64,000 bases of DNA from Alphaproteobacteria bacterium (GCA_035714115.1 DASTMO010000078.1:42461-106460); one strand, 5' to 3'. Positions 1 to 11,589 are shown, counted from the first letter of the stretch. The notes: a model not told the origin generated them from the sequence alone. Numbers and translations: made by a program.

Positions 1-2
1 AG

Positions 3-1364
3 GTTTATAAAACCTTCGCCGCATGGCAGGCCACCGTGCCGGCCAAAGAATTCGAGCGCAAGCGCAAGGAAGCGGAGCTGCTGTTCCGCCGCCTCGGCAT
101 CACCTTCCTGGTCTACGGCAAGGAAAGCTCGACCGAACGGCTGATCCCGTTCGACGTCATTCCGCGCATCTTCACCGCCGAGGAATGGCAGCATATCCAT
201 GCCGGCTGCACCCAGCGCGTGCGCGCCATTAACGCATTTCTCGGCGACATCTATCACGGCCAGGACATCCTGCGCGCCGGACGCATCCCCGCCGAAGACA
301 TCCTGACCAATTCGCAATATCGCCCCGAGATGCAGGGGCTCGATGTGCAGAACGGCACCTACGTCCATATCGCCGGCCTCGATCTGGTGCGCACCGGCGA
401 GCGCGATTTTTACGTGCTGGAAGACAATCTGCGCACGCCGTCCGGCGTCTCTTACATGCTGGAAAACCGCAACGTCATGATGCGGCTCTTCCCCGACCTG
501 TTCTCGGCGCACAAGGTCGCGCCGGTTGACCACTATCCGGCGCATCTGATGCAGGCGCTGCGCGCGGTGGCGCCCGACGGCAAGCCGAACCCGACCGTCG
601 TGCTGCTCTCGCCCGGCGCCTACAACAGCGCCTATTTCGAGCATGTCTTCCTCGCCGACCAGATGGGCATCGACGTCGTCGAAGGCCAGGATCTGTTCGT
701 CAAGAACGGCTGCGTCTTCATGCGCACCACCAAAGGCCCGCAGCAGGTCGACGTGATCTATCGCCGCGTCGACGACGATTATCTCGACCCGCTGGCCTTC
801 CACCGCGATTCGATGCTCGGCGTGCCCGGCTTGCTCGCCGCCTACCGCGCCGGCAACGTCACGCTCGCCAACGCCATCGGCACCGGCGTCGCCGACGACA
901 AGTCGATGTACGTCCATGTGCCGGAGATGATCCGCTTCTATCTCGGCGAAGAGCCGATCCTGCAAAACGTGCCGACCTACGTGCTGCGCGAGGACGATGA
1001 CCGCGCCTACGTGCTCGACAATCTCGACAAGCTCGTGGTCAAGGAAGTGCACGGCTCTGGCGGCTACGGCATGCTCGTCGGCCCCGCCGCGACGACGAAG
1101 GAGCGCCAGGCCTTCGCCAAGCGCATTATCGCCAATCCGGGCAATTACATCGCCCAGCCGACCCTGTCGCTCTCGACCTGCCCGACATTCGTCGCCAAGG
1201 GCATCGCGCCGCGCCACGTCGATTTCCGGCCCTTCGTGATCAGCGGCAAGACCCAGACGCTGGTCCCCGGCGGCCTGACGCGCGTCGCCCTCATCAAAGG
1301 CTCGCTGGTGGTCAATTCGTCGCAGGGCGGCGGCACCAAAGACACCTGGATCCTGGAGGCCTAA
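3..1364 (+). CDS. Circularly permuted ATP-grasp type 2 protein (COG2308 family), 5'-partial: the reading frame is open to the window edge
   Basis: ORF 36..1364 stays open in frame back to position 3. The sequence (KRKEAELLFRRLGITF, LIPFDVIPRIF) matches the CP-ATP-grasp family that normally precedes an alpha-E protein. About 30-40 N-terminal residues are probably outside the window. Confidence 0.8.
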   Translation, partial: VYKTFAAWQATVPAKEFERKRKEAELLFRRLGITFLVYGKESSTERLIPFDVIPRIFTAEEWQHIHAGCTQRVRAINAFLGDIYHGQDILRAGRIPAEDILTNSQYRPEMQGLDVQNGTYVHIAGLDLVRTGERDFYVLEDNLRTPSGVSYMLENRNVMMRLFPDLFSAHKVAPVDHYPAHLMQALRAVAPDGKPNPTVVLLSPGAYNSAYFEHVFLADQMGIDVVEGQDLFVKNGCVFMRTTKGPQQVDVIYRRVDDDYLDPLAFHRDSMLGVPGLLAAYRAGNVTLANAIGTGVADDKSMYVHVPEMIRFYLGEEPILQNVPTYVLREDDDRAYVLDNLDKLVVKEVHGSGGYGMLVGPAATTKERQAFAKRIIANPGNYIAQPTLSLSTCPTFVAKGIAPRHVDFRPFVISGKTQTLVPGGLTRVALIKGSLVVNSSQGGGTKDTWILEA

Positions 1365-1367
1365 GCG

Positions 1368-2309
1368 ATGTTAGGTCGCAGCGCCAATCATCTCTACTGG
1401 ATGTCGCGCTATATCGAACGCGCCGAGAACACCGCGCGCATTCTCGAGATCAGCCAGCGCATGGCACTGCTGCCGCATGTCGCCAAGAAAGGCGCCAGCG
1501 AATGGCAGGCCGTGCTCGAGATCGCCGGCGACGCCGCCGACTTCGAAGCGCGCTATGGCGAAGTGACGGCGGCGAAAGTCACCGCCTATCTCACGCTCGA
1601 CCGCGAGAACCCCTCCAGCATCTGGTCGACGATCCGCGCCGCGCGCGAAAATGCCCATGCCGAACGCGTCTCGATCACTTCGGAAATGTGGGAAAGCCTC
1701 AACGCCACCTGGCTTGAGGTGAAGGACCTGACGCCGGACATGCTCGGCAAGCACGGCCAGCGCGACTTCTTCGATTGGATCAAGGAGCGCTCGCATCTGT
1801 TCCGCGGCATCACCTTCGGCACCATGCTGCGCGACGAGGCCTATCACTTCGGCCGCCTCGGCACCTTCGTCGAGCGCGCCGACAATGTCGCGCGCATCCT
1901 CGACGTCAAATATCACGTGCTGTTGCCCTCGGTGGAGGATGTCGGCGGCGCGATCGACAATTTCCAATGGGGCGCGCTGCTGCGCTCCGTCTCGGGTTTC
2001 CGCGCCTACCATCGCGTCTACCACGACACGATCGAGCCGAGCCGCGTCACCGAGCTTCTCATCCTCAACGATTCGATGCCGCGCTCGCTGCATGCCTGCC
2101 TCGACAACACCGTCAGCCTGCTCGCCATGCTGAGCGAGGGCCGCCCCAACGAGGCCGCGCGCCTGGCCGGCGAGGTGCATGCTTCGCTGCACTACGGCAA
2201 GATCAGCGACATCTTCAAGACCGGCCTGCACGAGTTTCTGACGATCTTCATCCGACGCAACAATGCATTGTCGGCGGAGATCCAGAACAGCTTCCACCTC
2301 GCGGCTTAA
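1368..2309 (+). CDS. Alpha-E domain protein (COG2307/DUF403)
   Basis: 313 aa, starts 4 nt after the CP-ATP-grasp stop. Conserved MLGRSANHLYWMSRYIERAEN N-terminus typical of alpha-E proteins. Confidence 0.8.
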   Translation: MLGRSANHLYWMSRYIERAENTARILEISQRMALLPHVAKKGASEWQAVLEIAGDAADFEARYGEVTAAKVTAYLTLDRENPSSIWSTIRAARENAHAERVSITSEMWESLNATWLEVKDLTPDMLGKHGQRDFFDWIKERSHLFRGITFGTMLRDEAYHFGRLGTFVERADNVARILDVKYHVLLPSVEDVGGAIDNFQWGALLRSVSGFRAYHRVYHDTIEPSRVTELLILNDSMPRSLHACLDNTVSLLAMLSEGRPNEAARLAGEVHASLHYGKISDIFKTGLHEFLTIFIRRNNALSAEIQNSFHLAA

Positions 2310-2320
2310 GGCGGCATCCG

Positions 2321-3178
2321 ATGAAGCTCGCGATCCAGCACACCACGCTCTACCGCTACGATGCGCCGGTGAACTACACGATCCAGTATCTGCGTCTCAG
2401 CCCGCGTTCCTCCGCCTCGCAGCGCGTGCTGCGTTGGAAGGTGGAGACCCCGGGCGAGGTCATCGAGATGACCGACGCCTTCGGCAACATCCTAAACGTC
2501 CTCGTCGTCGACGAGCCGCATCAGGAGATCGCCATTCGCGTCACCGGCGAGGTCGAGACGACCGATATGGCCGGCGTGGTCGGCAACGAGAACGAGACCC
2601 TGCCGCCCGGCGTCTTCCTGCGCCGCTCTCATCTGACCGAGGGCGGCGACGCCGTCGAGGATATGATCTCGCCGTTGCGCAAATTGATCGCCAAGGACCG
2701 GCTCGAAGGCCTGCACAGCCTGCTCGGCACCGTGAGCGGTGCCGTCGCCTACCGCCAAGGCGAGACCGACGCGGCCACCACCGCCGCCGACGCGCTGGCG
2801 CAAGGCTCCGGCGTCTGCCAGGACCAAGCCCATGTCTTCGTCGCCGCGTCGCGCGCGCTCGGCGTGCCGGCGCGCTATGTCTCGGGCTATCTGCATGTGG
2901 GCCTCGGGGCGTCGGACAACGCCTCGCATGCCTGGGCCGAAGCCTGGGTCGACGCGCTCGGCTGGGTCGGGTTCGACATCACCAACGGCATCTCGCCGAC
3001 CGACCAGCATCTGCGCCTCGCCGTCGGCCTCGACTATCTCTCCTGCGCGCCGGTGCGCGGCGTGCGCCGCGGCGGCGGTTCCGAGGCGCTCGACGTCACG
3101 GTGCAGGTGAACCAGGGCAGCCTCGCCGTCATGCCCATGGCGCTGCTCTCGCCCGACAGCGGGCAGGCGCAGCAATAA
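2321..3178 (+). CDS. Transglutaminase-like family protein (N-terminal Bact_transglu_N plus TGase core)
   Basis: ATG at 2321 (MKLAIQHTTLYRYDAPV), in frame with the long 1775..3178 ORF. Cys/His/Asp triad context: GSGVCQDQAH, HAWAEAW, GFDITNG. Confidence 0.8.
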   Translation: MKLAIQHTTLYRYDAPVNYTIQYLRLSPRSSASQRVLRWKVETPGEVIEMTDAFGNILNVLVVDEPHQEIAIRVTGEVETTDMAGVVGNENETLPPGVFLRRSHLTEGGDAVEDMISPLRKLIAKDRLEGLHSLLGTVSGAVAYRQGETDAATTAADALAQGSGVCQDQAHVFVAASRALGVPARYVSGYLHVGLGASDNASHAWAEAWVDALGWVGFDITNGISPTDQHLRLAVGLDYLSCAPVRGVRRGGGSEALDVTVQVNQGSLAVMPMALLSPDSGQAQQ

Positions 3179-3269
3179 GAGCCGCCGCGCGGCGCTTTCT
3201 CCTAGAGCCGGCGCAGCCCCTCCGTTATCCTGCCGGCCCGTTCCCCCGCCTTCGGATGCGCCCTCCGCC

Positions 3270-4001
3270 ATGACCTACGCCGTCGGTTTCCTACTCGACT
3301 CCGGACTTCTGTTCGCCGCCGACACGCGCACCAACGCCGGCGTCGACCATGTCTCGACCTTCCGCAAGCTGACCGTCTTCGAAAAGCCCGGCAGCCGCGT
3401 GATGACGCTGCTGTCGGCCGGCAACCTTGCCATCACCCAGGCGGTGATCGAGGAGCTCAACGTCGGCATCGCCGCCAAACGCAAAGAGAATCTGTTGAAC
3501 GTCAAGACGATGTTCGCCGCCGCGCGCCTGGTCGGCGCCGCCGTGCGCAAGGTGCATGACGTCGACGCTGCGGCGCTGCGCCAGCAGGACACCGATTTCA
3601 ACGTCTCCTTCATCTTCGGCGGCCAGATCAAGGGTGAGCGCCATCGTCTGTTCCAGATTTATTCGGCCGGCAATTTCGTCGAAGCCGCGCCCGACAGCCC
3701 CTATTTCCAGATCGGCGAGAACAAGTACGGCAAGCCGATCATCGATCGCGTCATCACCTACAAATCGAGCCTGATGGAAGCGGCGAAATGCACGCTGCTC
3801 TCGTTCGATTCGACGATGCGAAGCAACGTATCGGTCGGCCTGCCGATCAACATGCTGACTTATCGCAAGAACAGCTATAAGCGCGGCTTCGAAGTCGAGG
3901 TCGACGCGGCCAACGATTATTATCGCAGCGTCGGCGGCTACTGGAGCGATGCCTTGCGCTTCGCGTTCCAGGAAATGCCCAACCCCGACTGGAAGATCTG
4001 A
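3270..4001 (+). CDS. Proteasome-type (Ntn-hydrolase-like) protease, COG3484 family
   Basis: 243 aa, MTYAVGFLLDSGLLFAADTRTNAG. This is the fourth member of the conserved CP-ATP-grasp/alpha-E/TGase cassette. Confidence 0.65.
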   Translation: MTYAVGFLLDSGLLFAADTRTNAGVDHVSTFRKLTVFEKPGSRVMTLLSAGNLAITQAVIEELNVGIAAKRKENLLNVKTMFAAARLVGAAVRKVHDVDAAALRQQDTDFNVSFIFGGQIKGERHRLFQIYSAGNFVEAAPDSPYFQIGENKYGKPIIDRVITYKSSLMEAAKCTLLSFDSTMRSNVSVGLPINMLTYRKNSYKRGFEVEVDAANDYYRSVGGYWSDALRFAFQEMPNPDWKI

Positions 4002-4003
4002 GC

Positions 4004-4585
4004 ATGCTGCGACGGCTTTACGACTGGACGATGTCGCTCGCCTCGGGGCGGCATTCCGAACGGGCGCTGGCCGGCGTCTCATTCGTCGAAAGCTCGTTCT
4101 TTCCGATTCCGCCGGACATCCTTTTGATCCCGATGATCATCGCCCAGCCGCAGAAGGCTTGGCGGCTGGCGACCATCGCCACCATTTCCTCGGTGGTCGG
4201 CGGCTTCCTCGGCTACGCCATCGGCTATTTCCTGTTCGAAGCCGTCGGCCAGCCGATTCTGCAGTTCTACGGCATCGTCGACAAATACGACGAGCTCAAG
4301 CATCTGTTCGACACCTGGGGCGCCTGGATCATCATCGTCAAAGGCATGACGCCGATCCCCTACAAGTTCCTGACCATCACCGCGGGCGCGCTGCATTTCG
4401 ACCTGCTGGTCTTCACGATCGCCTCCGTGATTTCGCGCGGCCTGCGCTTCTTCCTCGTCGCCGCGCTCTTGTGGAAATTCGGCGAGCCGATCCGCGACTT
4501 CATCGAAAAGCGTTTGACGCTGGTCCTCACGCTCGGCCTTGTGATTTTGATCGGCGGCTTCGTCGTGATCAAATATCTGATCTGA
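4004..4585 (+). CDS. YqaA/DedA-family inner membrane protein
   Basis: 193 aa with multiple hydrophobic helices and the SFFPIPPD motif typical of the DedA/YqaA (SNARE-associated) family. Confidence 0.7.
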   Translation: MLRRLYDWTMSLASGRHSERALAGVSFVESSFFPIPPDILLIPMIIAQPQKAWRLATIATISSVVGGFLGYAIGYFLFEAVGQPILQFYGIVDKYDELKHLFDTWGAWIIIVKGMTPIPYKFLTITAGALHFDLLVFTIASVISRGLRFFLVAALLWKFGEPIRDFIEKRLTLVLTLGLVILIGGFVVIKYLI

Positions 4586-4608
4586 TCCGCCTCCCCGGAG
4601 AGTCCGCC

Positions 4609-5151
4609 ATGCCGATCGCTCCCGGCGTCCCCCTGCAGCCGCGCGGCGACATCGCCGCCCGCACCGCCTTTCTCGGTTTGCTCGCCGCGAGCGTGCTGAT
4701 CCTCGGCGGCGCCTTCGCCTTCCAATTCATCGGCGGCCTGCACCCTTGCGCGCTCTGCCTGTGGCAGCGCTACCCCTACGCCGTCATCATCGGCCTCGCC
4801 GGCATCGGCGCCGGTCTCGCGCGCGCCGGGGTCCAGCGCCACCATCTGGCCATCCTCATGGGCCTTTGCGCCCTCGCCTTCATGATCGATGCCGGCATCG
4901 CCGGCTTCCATGTCGGCGTCGAGCAGAAATGGTGGGAAGGCTTGAGCACCTGCTCGGGCACGGTGAGCGGCGCCGCCAGCCTGGACGACCTGCGCGACCG
5001 CCTGCTCGCCGCGCCGGTGATCCGCTGCGACGAGATCGCTTGGTCGATGTTCGGCATCTCCATGGCGGGCTATAATTTCCTCATGGCTCTCGCGCTCGGC
5101 CTTCTCAGCCTGCGCCTGACCGCTTCCTTCGCCAAAACGCCGACGCCGTGA
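4609..5151 (+). CDS. dsbB: DsbB-like disulfide bond formation protein
   Basis: In-frame ATG at 4609 inside the long 3949..5151 ORF. About 180 aa, four TM segments, a CxxC pair (HPCALCLW) in the first loop and a second Cys pair (TCSG...IRCDE) in the second loop. Confidence 0.6.
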   Translation: MPIAPGVPLQPRGDIAARTAFLGLLAASVLILGGAFAFQFIGGLHPCALCLWQRYPYAVIIGLAGIGAGLARAGVQRHHLAILMGLCALAFMIDAGIAGFHVGVEQKWWEGLSTCSGTVSGAASLDDLRDRLLAAPVIRCDEIAWSMFGISMAGYNFLMALALGLLSLRLTASFAKTPTP

Positions 5152-5152
5152 C

Positions 5153-5707
5153 ATGACAGAGAATTCTCGCCCCCATCGCCTGCCCGGCGATCCCGACCGC
5201 GCCGACGCCATCGAACGCATGATCCGCGTCGATCATGCCGGCGAGCATGGCGCCGTGCGCATCTATGACGGGCAGATGGCGGTGCTCAAACGCGGCCCGG
5301 CGGCGCGCGCGATCCGCCATATGGCGGCGCAGGAAAAGCGCCATCTCGAACGGTTCGACAAGCTGATGAACGAGCGCCGCGTGCGCCCGACCCTGCTCGC
5401 GCCGATCTGGGACGTCGCCGGTTTCGCCCTCGGCGCGGCTTCGGCGCTGATGGGGCCGAAGGCGGCGATGGCCTGCACGGTCGCCGTCGAGGAAGTGATC
5501 GAGGAGCATTACCGCCATCAGGCGGAGCAGCTCGGCCAGGACGATCCGACGCTCAAAGCGACGATCGAGGAATTTCGCGCCGACGAAATGAGCCACGGCG
5601 CCACCGCGCTCGATTACGGCGCGAAAGACGCGCCGCTCTATGACGCCTTTTCTTCTGTGGTGAAGGGCGGCGCGCGCCTCGCCATCTGGCTGTCGACCCG
5701 CATCTAG
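5153..5707 (+). CDS. coq7: Demethoxyubiquinone hydroxylase Coq7 (di-iron carboxylate)
   Basis: 184 aa with ExxH-type di-iron motifs (DHAGEHGAVRIY, EEFRADEMSH), typical of bacterial COQ7. Confidence 0.8.
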   Translation: MTENSRPHRLPGDPDRADAIERMIRVDHAGEHGAVRIYDGQMAVLKRGPAARAIRHMAAQEKRHLERFDKLMNERRVRPTLLAPIWDVAGFALGAASALMGPKAAMACTVAVEEVIEEHYRHQAEQLGQDDPTLKATIEEFRADEMSHGATALDYGAKDAPLYDAFSSVVKGGARLAIWLSTRI

Positions 5708-5806
5708 CGCGCCTTCGCGCGACGCGCCTCTAAAAAGAATCGAACCTCACAAACGCGAACGGCCGCACCTCGATGAGGCGCGGCCGTTGCTGAACGCAAT
5801 CTGGCG

Positions 5807-6493
5807 TCAGTTCGCCGCGAAGCAGTAGAACAGGCCAGCGCCGCCGCTGCTGCGCAGCGCGTCGACGCTGCAGCCGCCGCGCGAGCGATGCGAGGTGTTC
5901 CACGAGCGCGCCGGAATCGTCTCATCGAGGCCCTCGCGGTCGTGGTGGCCGAGCATCGCGCCGCCTTCGGCGCCGCTGCGCGTCCAGTTGCCGCAGGTCA
6001 TGTCCTCGCCGGCGGCATAAGCCATGCCGTTGGGCTGCGAACCGGTGAGGATGTCGTGCGTGTTGGGCTGATCGCCGCGGCCGTTGATGCGCATGCCCTT
6101 CTCGCTCAGCGCAGTGAAGCGGCTGAGATTGTTGTTGCCGTCATGCAGGTCGGCGAGCGTGCGCGCGACGACGACGCCCATGGCGTTCTGCCACGGCCCG
6201 GCGCCGATGCGATCGCGCGCGTTGACCGCCGGCTGGCCGCCTTCGGCCTGCGTCGAGAGATAGGCGCGCCAGGTTTTGTTGCCGGCGCCCGCCGCCTGGG
6301 CGAGAGCCTGACACTGCTTATCGGCGCCGGCGAGACCGCCGAGATCGCCGCCCTTGCCGGAGCCGACGCTGGTGACGAAGAAGGTCATCTCGGAGGCCTT
6401 GCTCATTTGCTGAGCCTGCGCGCTGGCCAGCGGCAGCAGCGCGAGCGCCGCGCCGGCGGCGACGAGACGAATGGCCTTGGTCGTGATGTGCAT
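5807..6493 (-). CDS. Secreted hypothetical protein (signal peptide, four Cys, Gly/Asn-rich)
   Basis: Start placed at MHITTKAIRLVAAGAALALLPLASAQA, a signal peptide with an AxA cleavage site. The rest has no family I can name. Confidence 0.5.
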   Translation of the reverse strand: MHITTKAIRLVAAGAALALLPLASAQAQQMSKASEMTFFVTSVGSGKGGDLGGLAGADKQCQALAQAAGAGNKTWRAYLSTQAEGGQPAVNARDRIGAGPWQNAMGVVVARTLADLHDGNNNLSRFTALSEKGMRINGRGDQPNTHDILTGSQPNGMAYAAGEDMTCGNWTRSGAEGGAMLGHHDREGLDETIPARSWNTSHRSRGGCSVDALRSSGGAGLFYCFAAN

Positions 6494-6652
6494 AGCGATC
6501 CCCTGTGTGATTGCGCGCGATCGCGCGTTCTTGTGCCGCGACTTTAGCAACCGGGACCGCGGCGAGGGATCACAAGGCCGTAATGCTGCGCCGCGAGAGG
6601 GGCGGCGTTCTGCTGAACGAAAGTATGGGCGACGCAGAACAGCGCGATCGTC

Positions 6653-7216
6653 TTAGAACTGTTCCAGCTCGCTGTCCCAATAGAGGAAGTCGCGCCAGCT
6701 TTCATGCAGATAATTCGGCGGATAGGCGCGCCCGTTCTCCTGCAGCTGGATCGTGCTCGGCTGCACCGGACGCACGCGTGGAAACATCTGCGCGTCCGCC
6801 GGCATCACCCCGCCCTTCTTGAGATTGCACGGCTCACAGGCGGCGACGACGTTGGTCCAGCTCGTGCGTCCGCCGAGCGATTTGGGAATCACATGGTCGA
6901 AGGTGAGGCCTTCGGCCGGGCTGCGCACGCCGCAATATTGGCAGGAGAAGCGGTCGCGCAGGAACACGTTGAACCGCGTGAAGGCCGGACGGCGCGCCGC
7001 CGGGATGTAATCCTTCAGCGACACAACCGACGGCAGACGCATGGCGCGCGTCGGCGAATGCACTTCGCGGTCGTATTCCGAGACAATATTGACGCGCCCC
7101 AAGAACACCGCTTTCACGGCTTCCTGCCAAGGCCACAGAGACAAGGGAAAATAGGAGAGCGGCCGAAAATCGGCGTTCAGGACCAGCGCGGGACAGCTAT
7201 CTGGCGAAGCAAGCAA
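6653..7216 (-). CDS. HNH endonuclease (stand-alone)
   Basis: 187 aa. HNH motif CQYCGVRS...LTFDHVIPKSLGG...NVVAACEPCNLKKG. Confidence 0.8.
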   Translation of the reverse strand: MLASPDSCPALVLNADFRPLSYFPLSLWPWQEAVKAVFLGRVNIVSEYDREVHSPTRAMRLPSVVSLKDYIPAARRPAFTRFNVFLRDRFSCQYCGVRSPAEGLTFDHVIPKSLGGRTSWTNVVAACEPCNLKKGGVMPADAQMFPRVRPVQPSTIQLQENGRAYPPNYLHESWRDFLYWDSELEQF

Positions 7217-7375
7217 CGCTCACTCCCTGGGGATAAGAGCCACTCAACGCTCATATCAAACAACAGGCCGGTGACCGTTTCAAGACCGCCGAGGGCTTTT
7301 TCGCAACCCCTGGTAGGAACCGCTGTTTAAAACCCCTAAAGGCAGCGTTTCTGTAAGAAAGTTTCAGAGCGGAAA

Positions 7376-8041
7376 TCAGGCCGCCGCGAACAGGCCGCGC
7401 AGGAAGGCGCCGCCGAGGGTGAGGCCTTCCATGTCGATGGAATGGCCGAGGCCGGGCCGCGTATGGCCTTCCACCGGCACATCGAGCGCGTCGAGCGCCG
7501 AGACCGACAATTGATGCAGGCCGTAATCGACCACCGGATCGTCGTCGCCGTGGATCAGCATCACCGGCGGGCGCACGCGGATCTCACTCGCAAGGGTTTC
7601 CGCGCCCAAGAGCGCGCCGGAATAGCCGAGCACGCCGGCGCAAGGGCTGACGCGGCGCAGCGCCACATGCAACGCCGTCATCGTGCCTTGCGAGAAGCCG
7701 ACGAGGGCGAGCTGCGCGTCGGTCAGCTTGCGCGCTTCCAGTTCCAGATCGAGGAATCTGTCGAGGATCGGCGCGGCCATGCGCGCGCCTTCCATCATGC
7801 GCGCCGGAGCGCGGTCGCTCAGGCTGAACCACTGCCGGCCGAACGGCGCCATCTCGCAAGGAAAGGGCGCATGCGGCGAAACGAACGCCGCATCGGGCAG
7901 AAGCCGCGCGAAATGCGGCGCCAGGCCGATCAGATCGTTGCCGTCGGCGCCGTAGCCATGCAGCAGCACGATAAGCTGCTTGGCCGGGCCGCCCGAGGCC
8001 GGATCGAGCGACGGGCCTTCGAGTTTCGGATAGCTGCTCAT
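7376..8041 (-). CDS. Phospholipase/carboxylesterase family alpha/beta hydrolase
   Basis: Start at MSSYPKLEG (ATG 8039-8041). LLHGYGADGND, GFSQGTM nucleophile elbow, Asp/His downstream. Confidence 0.75.
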   Translation of the reverse strand: MSSYPKLEGPSLDPASGGPAKQLIVLLHGYGADGNDLIGLAPHFARLLPDAAFVSPHAPFPCEMAPFGRQWFSLSDRAPARMMEGARMAAPILDRFLDLELEARKLTDAQLALVGFSQGTMTALHVALRRVSPCAGVLGYSGALLGAETLASEIRVRPPVMLIHGDDDPVVDYGLHQLSVSALDALDVPVEGHTRPGLGHSIDMEGLTLGGAFLRGLFAAA

Positions 8042-9096: not shown

Positions 9097-10818
9097 TTGA
9101 TGTCCATGACCGTCACCGCGCCTCCCGCTGCCGCGAATGAAACACCTGCCGCCCCGGCCCTGCCGGGGGCGAAGCTGCTGCCGCTTTGCCGCGACGCTTT
9201 GGCGGCCGCGCGCAGCTACGGCGAGGCCGCGCGCCAGTCGGTCACGGCGCTCCTTGTAACGGCCGGAAAAGTCGACGCGGCGAAACTCGACGCCCATCAA
9301 TTTGCCGCCCATGCGCTGGCCTGGACCGCCACCTATGTCGAAGCCTTGGGCCAGATGCTCGCTTGGGCCGAGCGGTTAGAGGCCGAGAGCAAATTCGGCG
9401 AATTGGAGTGGCTCATCCTGCAGGCGGCGTACGGCGAATATCTCGCCCAACTCGCCGGCGGCATCTCGCTGGCGCAAGGCGAGATCGCGCGCCACGGCGA
9501 TATGGGGCTGCCGCACGAAAGCCTGCGCGCGCTGTTCGTGCCCGCCGCCACGCAACTGATCGCCGCCGGCAACAGCGCCGCGGCGCGCCAGCGCCTCGCT
9601 GAACTGGTGAACGAGAACCGCTTCGGCGATCCCGGCCTCGGCGACGAGACGCTGGAGGCCGTGCAGAGCGAGTTTCGCCGCTTCACCGAAGAGACGATCG
9701 CGCCCCACGCCCACGGCTGGCATCTGCAGAACCAGCTGATCCCGCTGGACGTGATCGAGAAGCTCGCCGAACTCGGCGTTTTCGGCCTGACCGTGCCGGA
9801 GGAATATGGCGGCTTAGGCATGAACCGCATCGCTCTTTGCGTCGTCACCGAGGAATTGAGCCGCGGCTATATTGGCGTCGGCTCGCTCGGTACGCGTTCG
9901 GAAATCGCCGGCGAACTGATCCGTCTCGGCGGCACCGACGCGCAGAAGCAGAAATATCTGCCGAAGATCGCCAGCGGCGAGATTCTGCCGACCGCCGTCT
10001 TCACCGAGCCCAATACAGGCTCCGATCTCGGCGCTTTACGCACCCGCGCCGTGCGCGCGAAGCGCGACGGCAAGGACGTCTATCTCATCACCGGCAACAA
10101 GACCTGGATCACTCACGCCGCGCGCTCGGACATGATGACGCTGTTGGCGCGCACCGATCCGAACGAACCGGGCTGGAAGGGTCTCTCGATGTTCCTCGCG
10201 GAAAAGCCGCGCGGCACAGACGAGAACCCGTTCCCCGCGCCGGGCATGAGCGGCGGCGAGATCGAAGTGCTCGGCTATCGCGGCATGAAGGAATATGAGC
10301 TCGGCTTCGACGAATTCATCGTGCCGACGGAGAACCTGCTCGGCGGCGTCGAAGGCCAGGGCTTCAAGCAATTGATGCAGACCTTCGAGGTGGCGCGCAT
10401 CCAGACCGCGGCGCGCGCCGTCGGCGTGGCGCAGAACGCCATGGAGCTGGCGCTGTCCTATGCCCAGTCGCGCAAGCAGTTCGGCCGCAGCATCGGCGAA
10501 TTCCCGCGCGTCGCCGGCAAGATCGCCTGGATGGCGGTCGAAACCATGATCGCCCGCCAGCTCGCCTATTTCGCCGCGCGCGAGAAGGATTCGGAGCGGC
10601 GCTGCGACCGCGAGGCCGGCATGGCCAAACTGCTCGGCGCGCGCGTCGCCTGGTCGAACGCCGACAATGCCTTGCAGATTCACGGCGGCAACGGCTATGC
10701 CCTCGAATATCAGATCAGCCGGGTGCTGTGCGACGCGCGCATCCTCAATATTTTCGAAGGCGCGGCCGAGATCCAGGCTCAGGTGATCGCGCGCGGCATC
10801 CTCGACGGGAGAAACTGA
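9097..10818 (+). CDS. Acyl-CoA dehydrogenase family protein (long N-terminal extension)
   Basis: 573 aa. ACAD middle and C-terminal motifs (ITGNKTWITHA, ALQIHGGNGY, NIFEGAAEIQ). Confidence 0.85.
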   Translation: MMSMTVTAPPAAANETPAAPALPGAKLLPLCRDALAAARSYGEAARQSVTALLVTAGKVDAAKLDAHQFAAHALAWTATYVEALGQMLAWAERLEAESKFGELEWLILQAAYGEYLAQLAGGISLAQGEIARHGDMGLPHESLRALFVPAATQLIAAGNSAAARQRLAELVNENRFGDPGLGDETLEAVQSEFRRFTEETIAPHAHGWHLQNQLIPLDVIEKLAELGVFGLTVPEEYGGLGMNRIALCVVTEELSRGYIGVGSLGTRSEIAGELIRLGGTDAQKQKYLPKIASGEILPTAVFTEPNTGSDLGALRTRAVRAKRDGKDVYLITGNKTWITHAARSDMMTLLARTDPNEPGWKGLSMFLAEKPRGTDENPFPAPGMSGGEIEVLGYRGMKEYELGFDEFIVPTENLLGGVEGQGFKQLMQTFEVARIQTAARAVGVAQNAMELALSYAQSRKQFGRSIGEFPRVAGKIAWMAVETMIARQLAYFAAREKDSERRCDREAGMAKLLGARVAWSNADNALQIHGGNGYALEYQISRVLCDARILNIFEGAAEIQAQVIARGILDGRN

Positions 10819-10819
10819 C

Positions 10820-11026
10820 ATGTCCGAAGGCATGAACACCGCCTTCACCGTGATGATCGGCGTCGCCGCCCTGGCGACGCTGGCGGTGGTTTTCATCGGC
10901 GTCATCAACATGAGCCGCAAGGGCCACGACCCGCGCACCTCGAACAAGCTGATGCGTTGGCGCATCATTCTGCAGGCGGTGGCGATCGGCCTGATCGTGC
11001 TGTTCCTGCTGATCGCGAAACGCTGA
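10820..11026 (+). CDS. Twin transmembrane helix small protein (HIG1-like)
   Basis: 68 aa, two hydrophobic helices separated by RKGHDPRTSNKLMRWR. Tightly packed between the ACAD and pduO genes. Confidence 0.55.
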   Translation: MSEGMNTAFTVMIGVAALATLAVVFIGVINMSRKGHDPRTSNKLMRWRIILQAVAIGLIVLFLLIAKR

Positions 11027-11589
11027 TGGTCAAACTCACCAGGATCTACACGCGCGGCGGCGATGCGGGCGAAACCTCGCTCGGCGACGGCGCGCGCGTG
11101 CCTAAGCACGATCTGCGCGTCGAGGCGATGGGAGCGGTGGACGAGGCCAATGCGGCCGTCGGTCTGGCGCGTCTGCATGTGGATGGCGATTTCGACGCCA
11201 TGCTCGGGCGCATCCAGAACGACCTGTTCGATCTTGGCGCCGATCTCTGCGTGCCCGAGGGAGCCGAACGGACGAACGGCGCGTTACGCATCGTCCAGAC
11301 GCAGATCGACCGACTCGAGCGCGAGATCGACGCCATGAACGCCAAGCTCGCGCCGCTCAATTCCTTCATCCTGCCCGGCGGCAGCGCGGCGAGCGCCAAT
11401 CTGCATTTGGCGCGAACCGTGGCGCGCCGCGCCGAACGGCTGATGACGGCGCTGGCGGCGCGCGAGCGCCTCAACCCGCTGGCAGTGGCCTATATCAACC
11501 GCCTGTCGGATCATCTGTTCGTGCTGGCGCGCGCGCTCAACGACAATGGCGCGCGGGACGTTCTCTGGACTCCCGGCGCCAATCGTTAA
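11026..11589 (+). CDS. pduO: PduO-type ATP:cob(I)alamin adenosyltransferase
   Basis: ATG 11026 overlapping the upstream stop. MVKLTRIYTRGGDAGETSLGDG is the canonical N-terminus of PduO-type adenosyltransferases. Confidence 0.85.
   Translation: MVKLTRIYTRGGDAGETSLGDGARVPKHDLRVEAMGAVDEANAAVGLARLHVDGDFDAMLGRIQNDLFDLGADLCVPEGAERTNGALRIVQTQIDRLEREIDAMNAKLAPLNSFILPGGSAASANLHLARTVARRAERLMTALAARERLNPLAVAYINRLSDHLFVLARALNDNGARDVLWTPGANR

Follow-up and report, generated by a model that had tools for sequence, protein, structure and literature searches.

Anbu (ancestral beta subunit; COG3484) is a proteasome-type N-terminal-nucleophile (Ntn) hydrolase that was defined by Valas and Bourne (2008), who placed its gene in an operon with genes of COG2307, COG2308, and COG1305. 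Anbu was again found often in an operon with the same three genes by Fuchs (2017), and Piasecka (2018) described a four-gene operon "in conserved order": ATP-grasp, alphaE, transglutaminase-like, and Anbu. Operons of this kind are those of Pseudomonas aeruginosa (where Anbu is PA1733), P. putida (PP_2688 to PP_2685), Yersinia bercovieri, and a Hyphomicrobium sp. Here we describe the copy at the beginning of a stretch of 64,000 nucleotides of DNA from an alphaproteobacterium (GCA_035714115.1, DASTMO010000078.1:42461-106460; the whole stretch is called the window). Positions 1-4001 of its + strand encode a circularly permuted (CP) ATP-grasp protein, an Alpha-E protein, a transglutaminase-like enzyme having a Cys-His-Asp triad, and Anbu of the Anbu-1 subtype, and we hold it to be almost certain that these genes are the Anbu operon, in a standard copy on the chromosome of an uncultured alphaproteobacterium. 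The cassette is thus of a kind that is widespread and has long been described, and the copy in the window is an ordinary one.

The four families were predicted by Iyer (2009), as quoted in later papers, to form a system of peptide ligation and processing. Several Anbu crystal structures exist, the ATP-grasp protein of the operon releases orthophosphate from ATP, and P. aeruginosa Anbu (Pa-Anbu) reacts with proteasome inhibitors; the authors of the latter work hold degradation to be likelier than peptide synthesis. Three functional models (degradation, biosynthesis, and tagging) are already in the literature, and a survey of 2021 still gave Anbu as a protein without known function. Nothing was found in the literature searched on functional work on the operon after 2018, and the operon goes unmentioned in a paper on a fitness screen in P. 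putida.

In its fold, that of an Ntn-hydrolase beta subunit, and in its Thr1/Asp17/Lys33 catalytic set Anbu agrees with HslVU and the 20S proteasome. Unlike these, it has no AAA+ (ATPases associated with diverse cellular activities) unfoldase partner, no propeptide, and no demonstrated peptidase activity, it is not heat-shock regulated, and its assembly is an open split ring or helix instead of closed stacked rings. The Pup-proteasome system of actinobacteria (PafA/Dop, Mpa, and the 20S proteasome) is similar in its logic in that an ATP-dependent carboxylate-amine ligase is encoded beside a proteasome-family peptidase. The PafA ligase has a glutamine-synthetase-like fold, whereas that of the window cassette is a circularly permuted ATP-grasp and, in contrast to the Pup-proteasome system, neither the cassette nor its conserved neighbours include a Pup-like tag gene or an AAA+ ATPase. 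A third group consists of Anbu-less triads and fused "large transglutaminase-like" proteins (Burkholderia cenocepacia I35_5080-83), which share the first three families.

An earlier note on this DNA, which was made from the sequence alone, had read positions 1-4001 as four consecutive genes of these families and had cited the prediction of Iyer, Aravind, and colleagues that such genes form a peptide-ligation and processing system. The families and the prediction were right and the prediction was correctly cited. Moreover, its statement that no substrate or product has been established is still true in the literature searched. The comparisons it drew with pupylation and with glutathione or cyanophycin chemistry are to be taken as analogies. 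What the note missed is that the cassette is a named and much-studied operon for which structures, negative biochemistry, and data on nitrogen and NtrC are available.

Results

The four genes belong to the Anbu operon families

An open reading frame (ORF) listing and direct reading of the sequence gave four consecutive genes on the + strand in the order and at the places described by the earlier note. The hidden Markov model searches that the note had proposed bore out its family assignments together with a sequence search of the PDB: CP_ATPgrasp_2, Alpha-E, and Transglut_core were matched far beyond chance, whereas the Pfam Proteasome profile scored only 22.4 bits with the fourth protein, exactly at the cut-off, and this protein was placed by its PDB matches.

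The fourth gene (3270-4001, 243 residues) is that of Anbu because its product matched every distinct Anbu sequence having a solved structure, five in all, over its full length: 5loy (E = 2e-86), 5nyj (2e-78), 5nyf (6e-78), 5nyw (3e-70), and 5lox (3e-60). The alignments run from residues 1-2 to residues 236-242 of the 243 and include the C-terminal extension. The protein begins Met-Thr and therefore has no propeptide, as in the operons named above, and it has the same catalytic residues Thr1 (codon 3273-3275), Asp17 (3321-3323), and Lys32 (3366-3368). When numbered with the Met (T2, D18, and K33) these three residues are invariant in 40 homologues. The S1 pocket read from the sequence is T20 F30 S48 L52 T55. 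That of Pa-Anbu, an Anbu-1 protein, is amphiphilic (T20 F30 T48 L52 S55), whereas the Anbu-2 pocket is basic (I20 A29 R46 R50 T53). By its residues the window Anbu is of the Anbu-1 subtype, differing from Pa-Anbu in the detail of S48/T55 versus T48/S55, and the best of its PDB matches (5loy) is an Anbu-1 consensus design. Judged from the strong matches to crystallized Anbu proteins and from its 47-93% identity to homologues, the window protein would assemble as an open dodecameric split ring or a helical lock-washer. Note that at one related locus (L041, 4741-5145) the Anbu match is broken in two, with short stretches that cover query residues 1-64 and 154-241, which suggests that this gene is decayed or misassembled.

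The first gene (<1-1364, frame 3, stop codon TAA at 1362-1364) encodes a CP-ATP-grasp type 2 protein (COG2308) that matched Pfam CP_ATPgrasp_2 (PF14403) over the full profile (1-374, E = 5.7e-166), PF04174 (E = 7e-155), and PDB 3n6x (E = 1.2e-218). The gene is cut by the 5' edge of the window, as had been noted before, because the 3n6x alignment begins at chain residue 23. Scanning the window ATP-grasp protein against 185,579 species genomes gave 80 loci, or 81 counting the window. The nearest are those of metagenome-assembled alphaproteobacteria (95, 92, 91, 84, and 84% identity; L001 to L005) and the remainder are mostly of beta- and gamma-proteobacteria (66-71% identity). Among the 81 homologues 199 residues of the protein are at least 97% invariant. 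Extending the contig upstream, as the earlier note had suggested, was attempted with the exact Alpha-E sequence, which was found only on Logan contigs of 2.5-4.9 kilobases, none of which reaches the ATP-grasp start. The 95%-identical L001 was used in place of the missing upstream contig. Its full-length ATP-grasp ORF (9842-11362, 506 residues) follows an intergenic region of ~270 nucleotides (nt), and judged against it about 53 N-terminal codons of the window gene are missing. In L001, L002, and L003 the conserved FDEM motif of the ATP-grasp protein is preceded by an N-terminal extension that is rich in Lys, Ala, and Pro and resembles histone H1, for example MKAVKIKTAPKAKAAAQPAAPKTPASPRK (9842-9950, ~4733-4850, and ~9800-9950, respectively). 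The window begins past this region, and in L004 and L005 the extension is different and shorter.

The second gene (1368-2309, 313 residues) encodes the Alpha-E protein (COG2307) and matched Pfam Alpha-E (PF04168) over profile positions 1-293 of 294 (E = 4.5e-101). Two ER motifs, YIERAENTARIL (E17 R18) and FVERADNVARIL (E169 R170), are present and these four residues are invariant among homologues. An AlphaFold2 model is all-helical (predicted local distance difference test score 84, predicted template modelling score 0.82), and no homologous solved structure was found by PDB sequence search. Alpha-E is a large family, with more than 8000 protein clusters matched in one search. The short Logan contigs that carry the exact window protein (L081-L084; SRR11449179, SRR11449181, SRR11449183, and SRR11449188) come from a series of public sequencing runs and have the same downstream genes, and so the same organism is present in those samples.

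The third gene (2321-3178, 285 residues) encodes a transglutaminase-like cysteine enzyme (COG1305) having the domains Bact_transglu_N (PF08379, E = 3e-23) and Transglut_core (PF01841, E = 4e-21). Its match in the PDB search, 3isr, a transglutaminase-like putative cysteine protease (E = 3e-12), aligned at the catalytic motifs, and the triad motifs quoted in the earlier note were found in the triad region of that alignment. The triad is intact: Cys166 (codon 2816-2818), His203 (2927-2929), and Asp219 (2975-2977). In an alignment of 68 such sequences the catalytic Cys is conserved in 70-97%, and His203 and Asp219 in at least 97%; the nucleophile may be missing from some of the divergent paralogues (24-28% identical), or else the alignment may be wrong at this residue.

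No curated NCBIfam family names any of the four proteins, and an Rfam scan of window positions 1-8000 gave nothing credible. No second copy of the system was found elsewhere in the 64-kilobase window.

Gene order among related loci

The window proteins were mapped onto the 74 loci that have enough sequence. The canonical order ATP-grasp, Alpha-E, transglutaminase, Anbu was found at 29 of these, and four more have Anbu ahead of the transglutaminase gene. Anbu without a transglutaminase gene is present at five loci, the triad without Anbu at 30, ATP-grasp plus Alpha-E only at five, and ATP-grasp only at one. Clustering of all ORFs of all loci gave ATP-grasp at 81, Alpha-E at 80, transglutaminase at 69, and Anbu at 41 of the 81 loci. 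As no other family exceeds 22 of the 81, there is no conserved fifth partner either upstream or downstream. The window differs from the Anbu-less triads in having Anbu, and its transglutaminase-like gene belongs to an Anbu-adjacent group (38-91% identical) and not to the 24-28% identical paralogues of the triads.

These data bear on the possibility that the four genes are mere neighbours without a joint function, or else part of a mobile or defence element. That Anbu follows a spacer of 91 nt and responded more weakly in one data set from P. putida would suit mere neighbours. However, the order is the same in alpha-, beta-, and gamma-proteobacteria whose proteins are 45-70% identical, a synteny that effectively refutes that view, and fusions of ATP-grasp to Alpha-E exist. 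As for a mobile or defence element, none of the four proteins matched the PADLOC defence-protein models, the G+C content of the four genes (0.60-0.70) is that of the surrounding DNA, and no mobile-element genes are adjacent. We consider both versions of this explanation extremely improbable.

The ATP-grasp and Alpha-E genes are adjacent at 80 of the 81 loci. At six loci we found ORFs of 881-885 residues in which a paralogous CP-ATP-grasp is fused to an Alpha-E domain (L033, 16129-18774; L044, 16714-19371; and L046, L056, L057, and L073). Since such fused paralogues exist, the Rosetta-stone argument suggests that ATP-grasp and Alpha-E probably act as one unit. The fused CP-ATP-grasp domain is ~32-34% identical to the window protein. 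Each fusion ORF is followed by a transglutaminase-like gene, and the whole is a second, Anbu-less system lying a few kilobases downstream of the first.

In all five close relatives the ATP-grasp gene is directly preceded, on its own strand, by a gene for an NMT1-like periplasmic solute-binding protein (L001, 8526-9572; L002, 3408-4478; L003, 8463-9530; L004, 8476-9588; L005, 840-1832). This neighbour is lineage-specific and was not found in the wider set of loci.

Regulation and extent of the transcription unit

The P. putida genes PP_2685-2688 are induced by nitrogen limitation, which was attributed to NtrB/NtrC, and were reported to be the most strongly induced gene set. The transglutaminase cluster of Burkholderia also depends on sigma-54 and NtrC. 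We scored the sigma-54 consensus TGGCACG-N4-TTGCW (12 positions) upstream of the ATP-grasp gene at 77 loci. At least 10 of the 12 positions were matched on the + strand at 44 of the 77 loci, whereas in the controls this was so at 7 of 77 on the - strand and at 1 of 77 in coding sequence. With at least 11 positions the numbers were 20 loci and none in the controls. In L006-L080 the sites lie ~30-60 nt ahead of the start codon of the ATP-grasp gene. Among the relatives, then, ATP-grasp is the leading gene and usually has a sigma-54 promoter-like site in front of it, which fits the published NtrC-dependent induction under nitrogen limitation. From these relatives it seems reasonably probable that in the genome of the window, too, the ATP-grasp gene is first and is expressed from a sigma-54 promoter activated by NtrC when nitrogen is limiting. 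A candidate promoter motif, GGGGTTTCGCTTGC, would be expected upstream of window position 1.

Two points weaken this reading. The five closest relatives carry only a weak sigma-54-like motif (GG-N10-GC, TTGC only) and the window promoter lies past the edge; because the close relatives hold just the weaker element, regulation in the window lineage can be inferred only. This element is an exact 13-mer, GGGGTTTCGCTTG, that all five close alphaproteobacterial relatives share in an otherwise divergent region ahead of their ATP-grasp genes; a weak sigma-54 -24/-12 element is one possibility for it, and some other regulatory site is another. It lies at ~9682-9697 in L001, with equivalents in L002-L005, and its distance from the start codon varies. 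Second, Anbu (PP_2685) responded far less strongly than its three partner genes in one data set from P. putida. Owing to this weaker induction and to the conserved block within the 91-nt spacer of the window, expression of Anbu may be partly uncoupled from that of the other three genes. No sigma-54 sites were found in window positions 1-5700, and the count over the whole window was below chance.

The earlier note had called the genes tightly spaced. This is true of the first two junctions (3 and 11 nt) and fails at the third (91 nt). The Alpha-E ATG is 3 nt past the ATP-grasp stop codon and its GGAGG Shine-Dalgarno sequence lies within the 3' end of the first gene. No terminator-like signal above chance was found between the cassette genes and the four genes, which share one strand, are very probably co-transcribed. 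The 91-nt spacer between the transglutaminase-like gene and Anbu (3179-3269, + strand) contains a weak GC hairpin (3181-3193) that together with a T-rich tail spans 3181-3203 and is within chance expectation, and the RNA fold of the spacer is no better than that of shuffled sequence (z = +1.49). Further along is a block at ~3216-3236, CCTCCGTTATCCTGCCGG in the window and GCTCCGATATGCT in the relatives, which is conserved in the four closest relatives. Just upstream of the block those relatives have an inverted repeat, GGAGC...GCTCC, that is degraded in the window. A consensus fold across five relatives retained a conserved inverted repeat and gave no covariation. The spacer element could act as an attenuator, as an internal promoter, or as an operator.

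Possible functions of the cassette

Our favoured mechanism, advanced tentatively although it is the one we lean to, is a module of amide ligation plus proteolysis used in nitrogen starvation. ATP-grasp and Alpha-E would together constitute one ATP-dependent carboxylate-amine ligase that, via an acyl-phosphate, makes an amide or isopeptide linkage to a peptide or protein substrate. The transglutaminase-like thiol enzyme would cleave or transfer such gamma-glutamyl or isopeptide-type bonds, and Anbu, as a Thr1 N-terminal-nucleophile peptidase in an open split ring, would degrade the polypeptide that has been marked or released, with no AAA+ unfoldase taking part. On balance, amino-acid nitrogen would be mobilized during starvation. 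No AAA+ unfoldase gene was found among the window neighbours (DedA, DsbB, COQ7, and a convergent secreted protein), no conserved flanking family is present in the 81 loci, and the Anbu operons of the model organisms likewise have no adjacent AAA+ gene. Taken as a whole, with identity, regulation, and mechanism together, we consider this explanation likely.

Several observations count against it. Anbu proteins from four species were inactive on standard proteasome substrates, a stable complex among the operon proteins was not detected, and the Alpha-E fold yielded no functional clue. In addition, ~40% of the related loci have no Anbu and some have no transglutaminase gene; therefore, the ligase pair must have a function for which the peptidases are dispensable.

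The last of these observations, loci that hold the ligase pair without Anbu, also speaks for peptide-metabolite biosynthesis, the original reading of Iyer and Aravind. The ligase pair would then make a small non-ribosomal peptide or an amino-acid conjugate, which the transglutaminase-like enzyme and Anbu would trim or mature into a storage, signalling, or protective metabolite rather than a degradation intermediate. Enzymes of the ATP-grasp superfamily typically make small amides (glutathione and glutathionylspermidine), 3n6x was named a "putative glutathionylspermidine synthase" by its depositors, the test substrates on which Anbu was inactive were protein-derived, and a P. aeruginosa PA1732 mutant showed altered quorum-sensing reporter activity. 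However, Anbu is ring-like with many identical active sites and a proteasome-like S1 pocket, which the structural authors read as pointing to processive proteolysis and away from peptide synthesis. Moreover, induction specifically under nitrogen limitation suits catabolism better than the making of a nitrogen-containing product, and no transporter or exporter is conserved beside the cassette. We regard biosynthesis as unlikely.

The inactivity of Anbu on standard substrates is also compatible with a specialized isopeptidase, and hence with a pupylation-like tagging system in which the ligase pair attaches an amino-acid or peptide tag and the transglutaminase-like enzyme, Anbu, or both remove it, so that activity is regulated and nothing is degraded. 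The cassette does combine an Ntn amidase with two enzymes that form or transfer amides, and a deubiquitinase-like role for Anbu has been raised in the literature. Such a system would call for a tag, but no small tag-protein gene lies in or beside the cassette (no non-cassette family being present at more than 22 of the 81 loci), no adducts have been reported, and the oligomeric ring architecture would be unusual for a de-tagging enzyme. Tagging of this regulatory kind appears quite improbable, and amide ligation coupled to proteolysis is the explanation that we retain.

Genes downstream of Anbu

Position 4001 is the end of Anbu and not necessarily that of the transcription unit. A gene for a DedA/VTT-family membrane protein (4004-4585, + strand; Pfam VTT_dom, E = 3e-9) starts 2 nt past the Anbu stop codon, and junctions of 2-3 nt are also found in L002, L003, and L004, whose Anbu proteins are 66-90% identical to that of the window. 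Neither L001 nor any of the beta- and gamma-proteobacterial loci has the DedA-family gene; it is a lineage-specific appendage lying outside the canonical operon. Within this lineage it may be co-transcribed or translationally coupled with the Anbu operon. It is followed after 23 nt by a DsbB gene (4609-5151, + strand) and, after a further 1 nt, by the gene for COQ7 (demethoxyubiquinone hydroxylase; 5153-5707, + strand). L001, L002, and L004 likewise have DsbB and COQ7 genes after Anbu; the sequence of L003 stops inside DsbB. The co-directional block thus begins ahead of position 1 and reaches 5707, uninterrupted by any terminator above chance. A convergent gene (5807-6550, - strand) encodes a 247-residue protein having a signal-peptide-like N-terminus and, below the Pfam threshold, a weak match to DUF1554. 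Relative to the Anbu operons of the model organisms, the DedA-DsbB-COQ7 genes after Anbu, the NMT1-like gene upstream in the closest relatives, and the Lys/Ala/Pro-rich ATP-grasp extension of L001-L003 are differences of detail.

Discussion

The window holds one more ordinary copy of the Anbu operon, which is no more tractable than the copies of the model organisms. Its analysis offers two modest leads for the family: ATP-grasp and Alpha-E as one unit, and the sigma-54-like sites that precede the ATP-grasp gene across proteobacteria. Of modest interest also are the lineage-specific features, the genes that follow Anbu, the NMT1-like gene, and the N-terminal extension of the ATP-grasp protein.

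A broader and rather doubtful possibility is that the operon encodes a tagging-and-degradation pathway controlled by sigma-54 and NtrC and operating without an AAA+ unfoldase, in which proteins or peptides marked by the ligase with an amide-linked group would be recognized and dismantled by the transglutaminase-like enzyme and the split ring of Anbu. In the alphaproteobacterial lineage of the window such a pathway might be tied to the membrane through the coupled DedA-family protein. If true, the pathway would be a starvation counterpart of pupylation and ubiquitination, an idea that is already in the literature. The Anbu operon is among the more prominent conserved bacterial gene clusters without an assigned function and, as Anbu stands at the evolutionary root of the proteasome family, solving the chemistry of the operon would matter.

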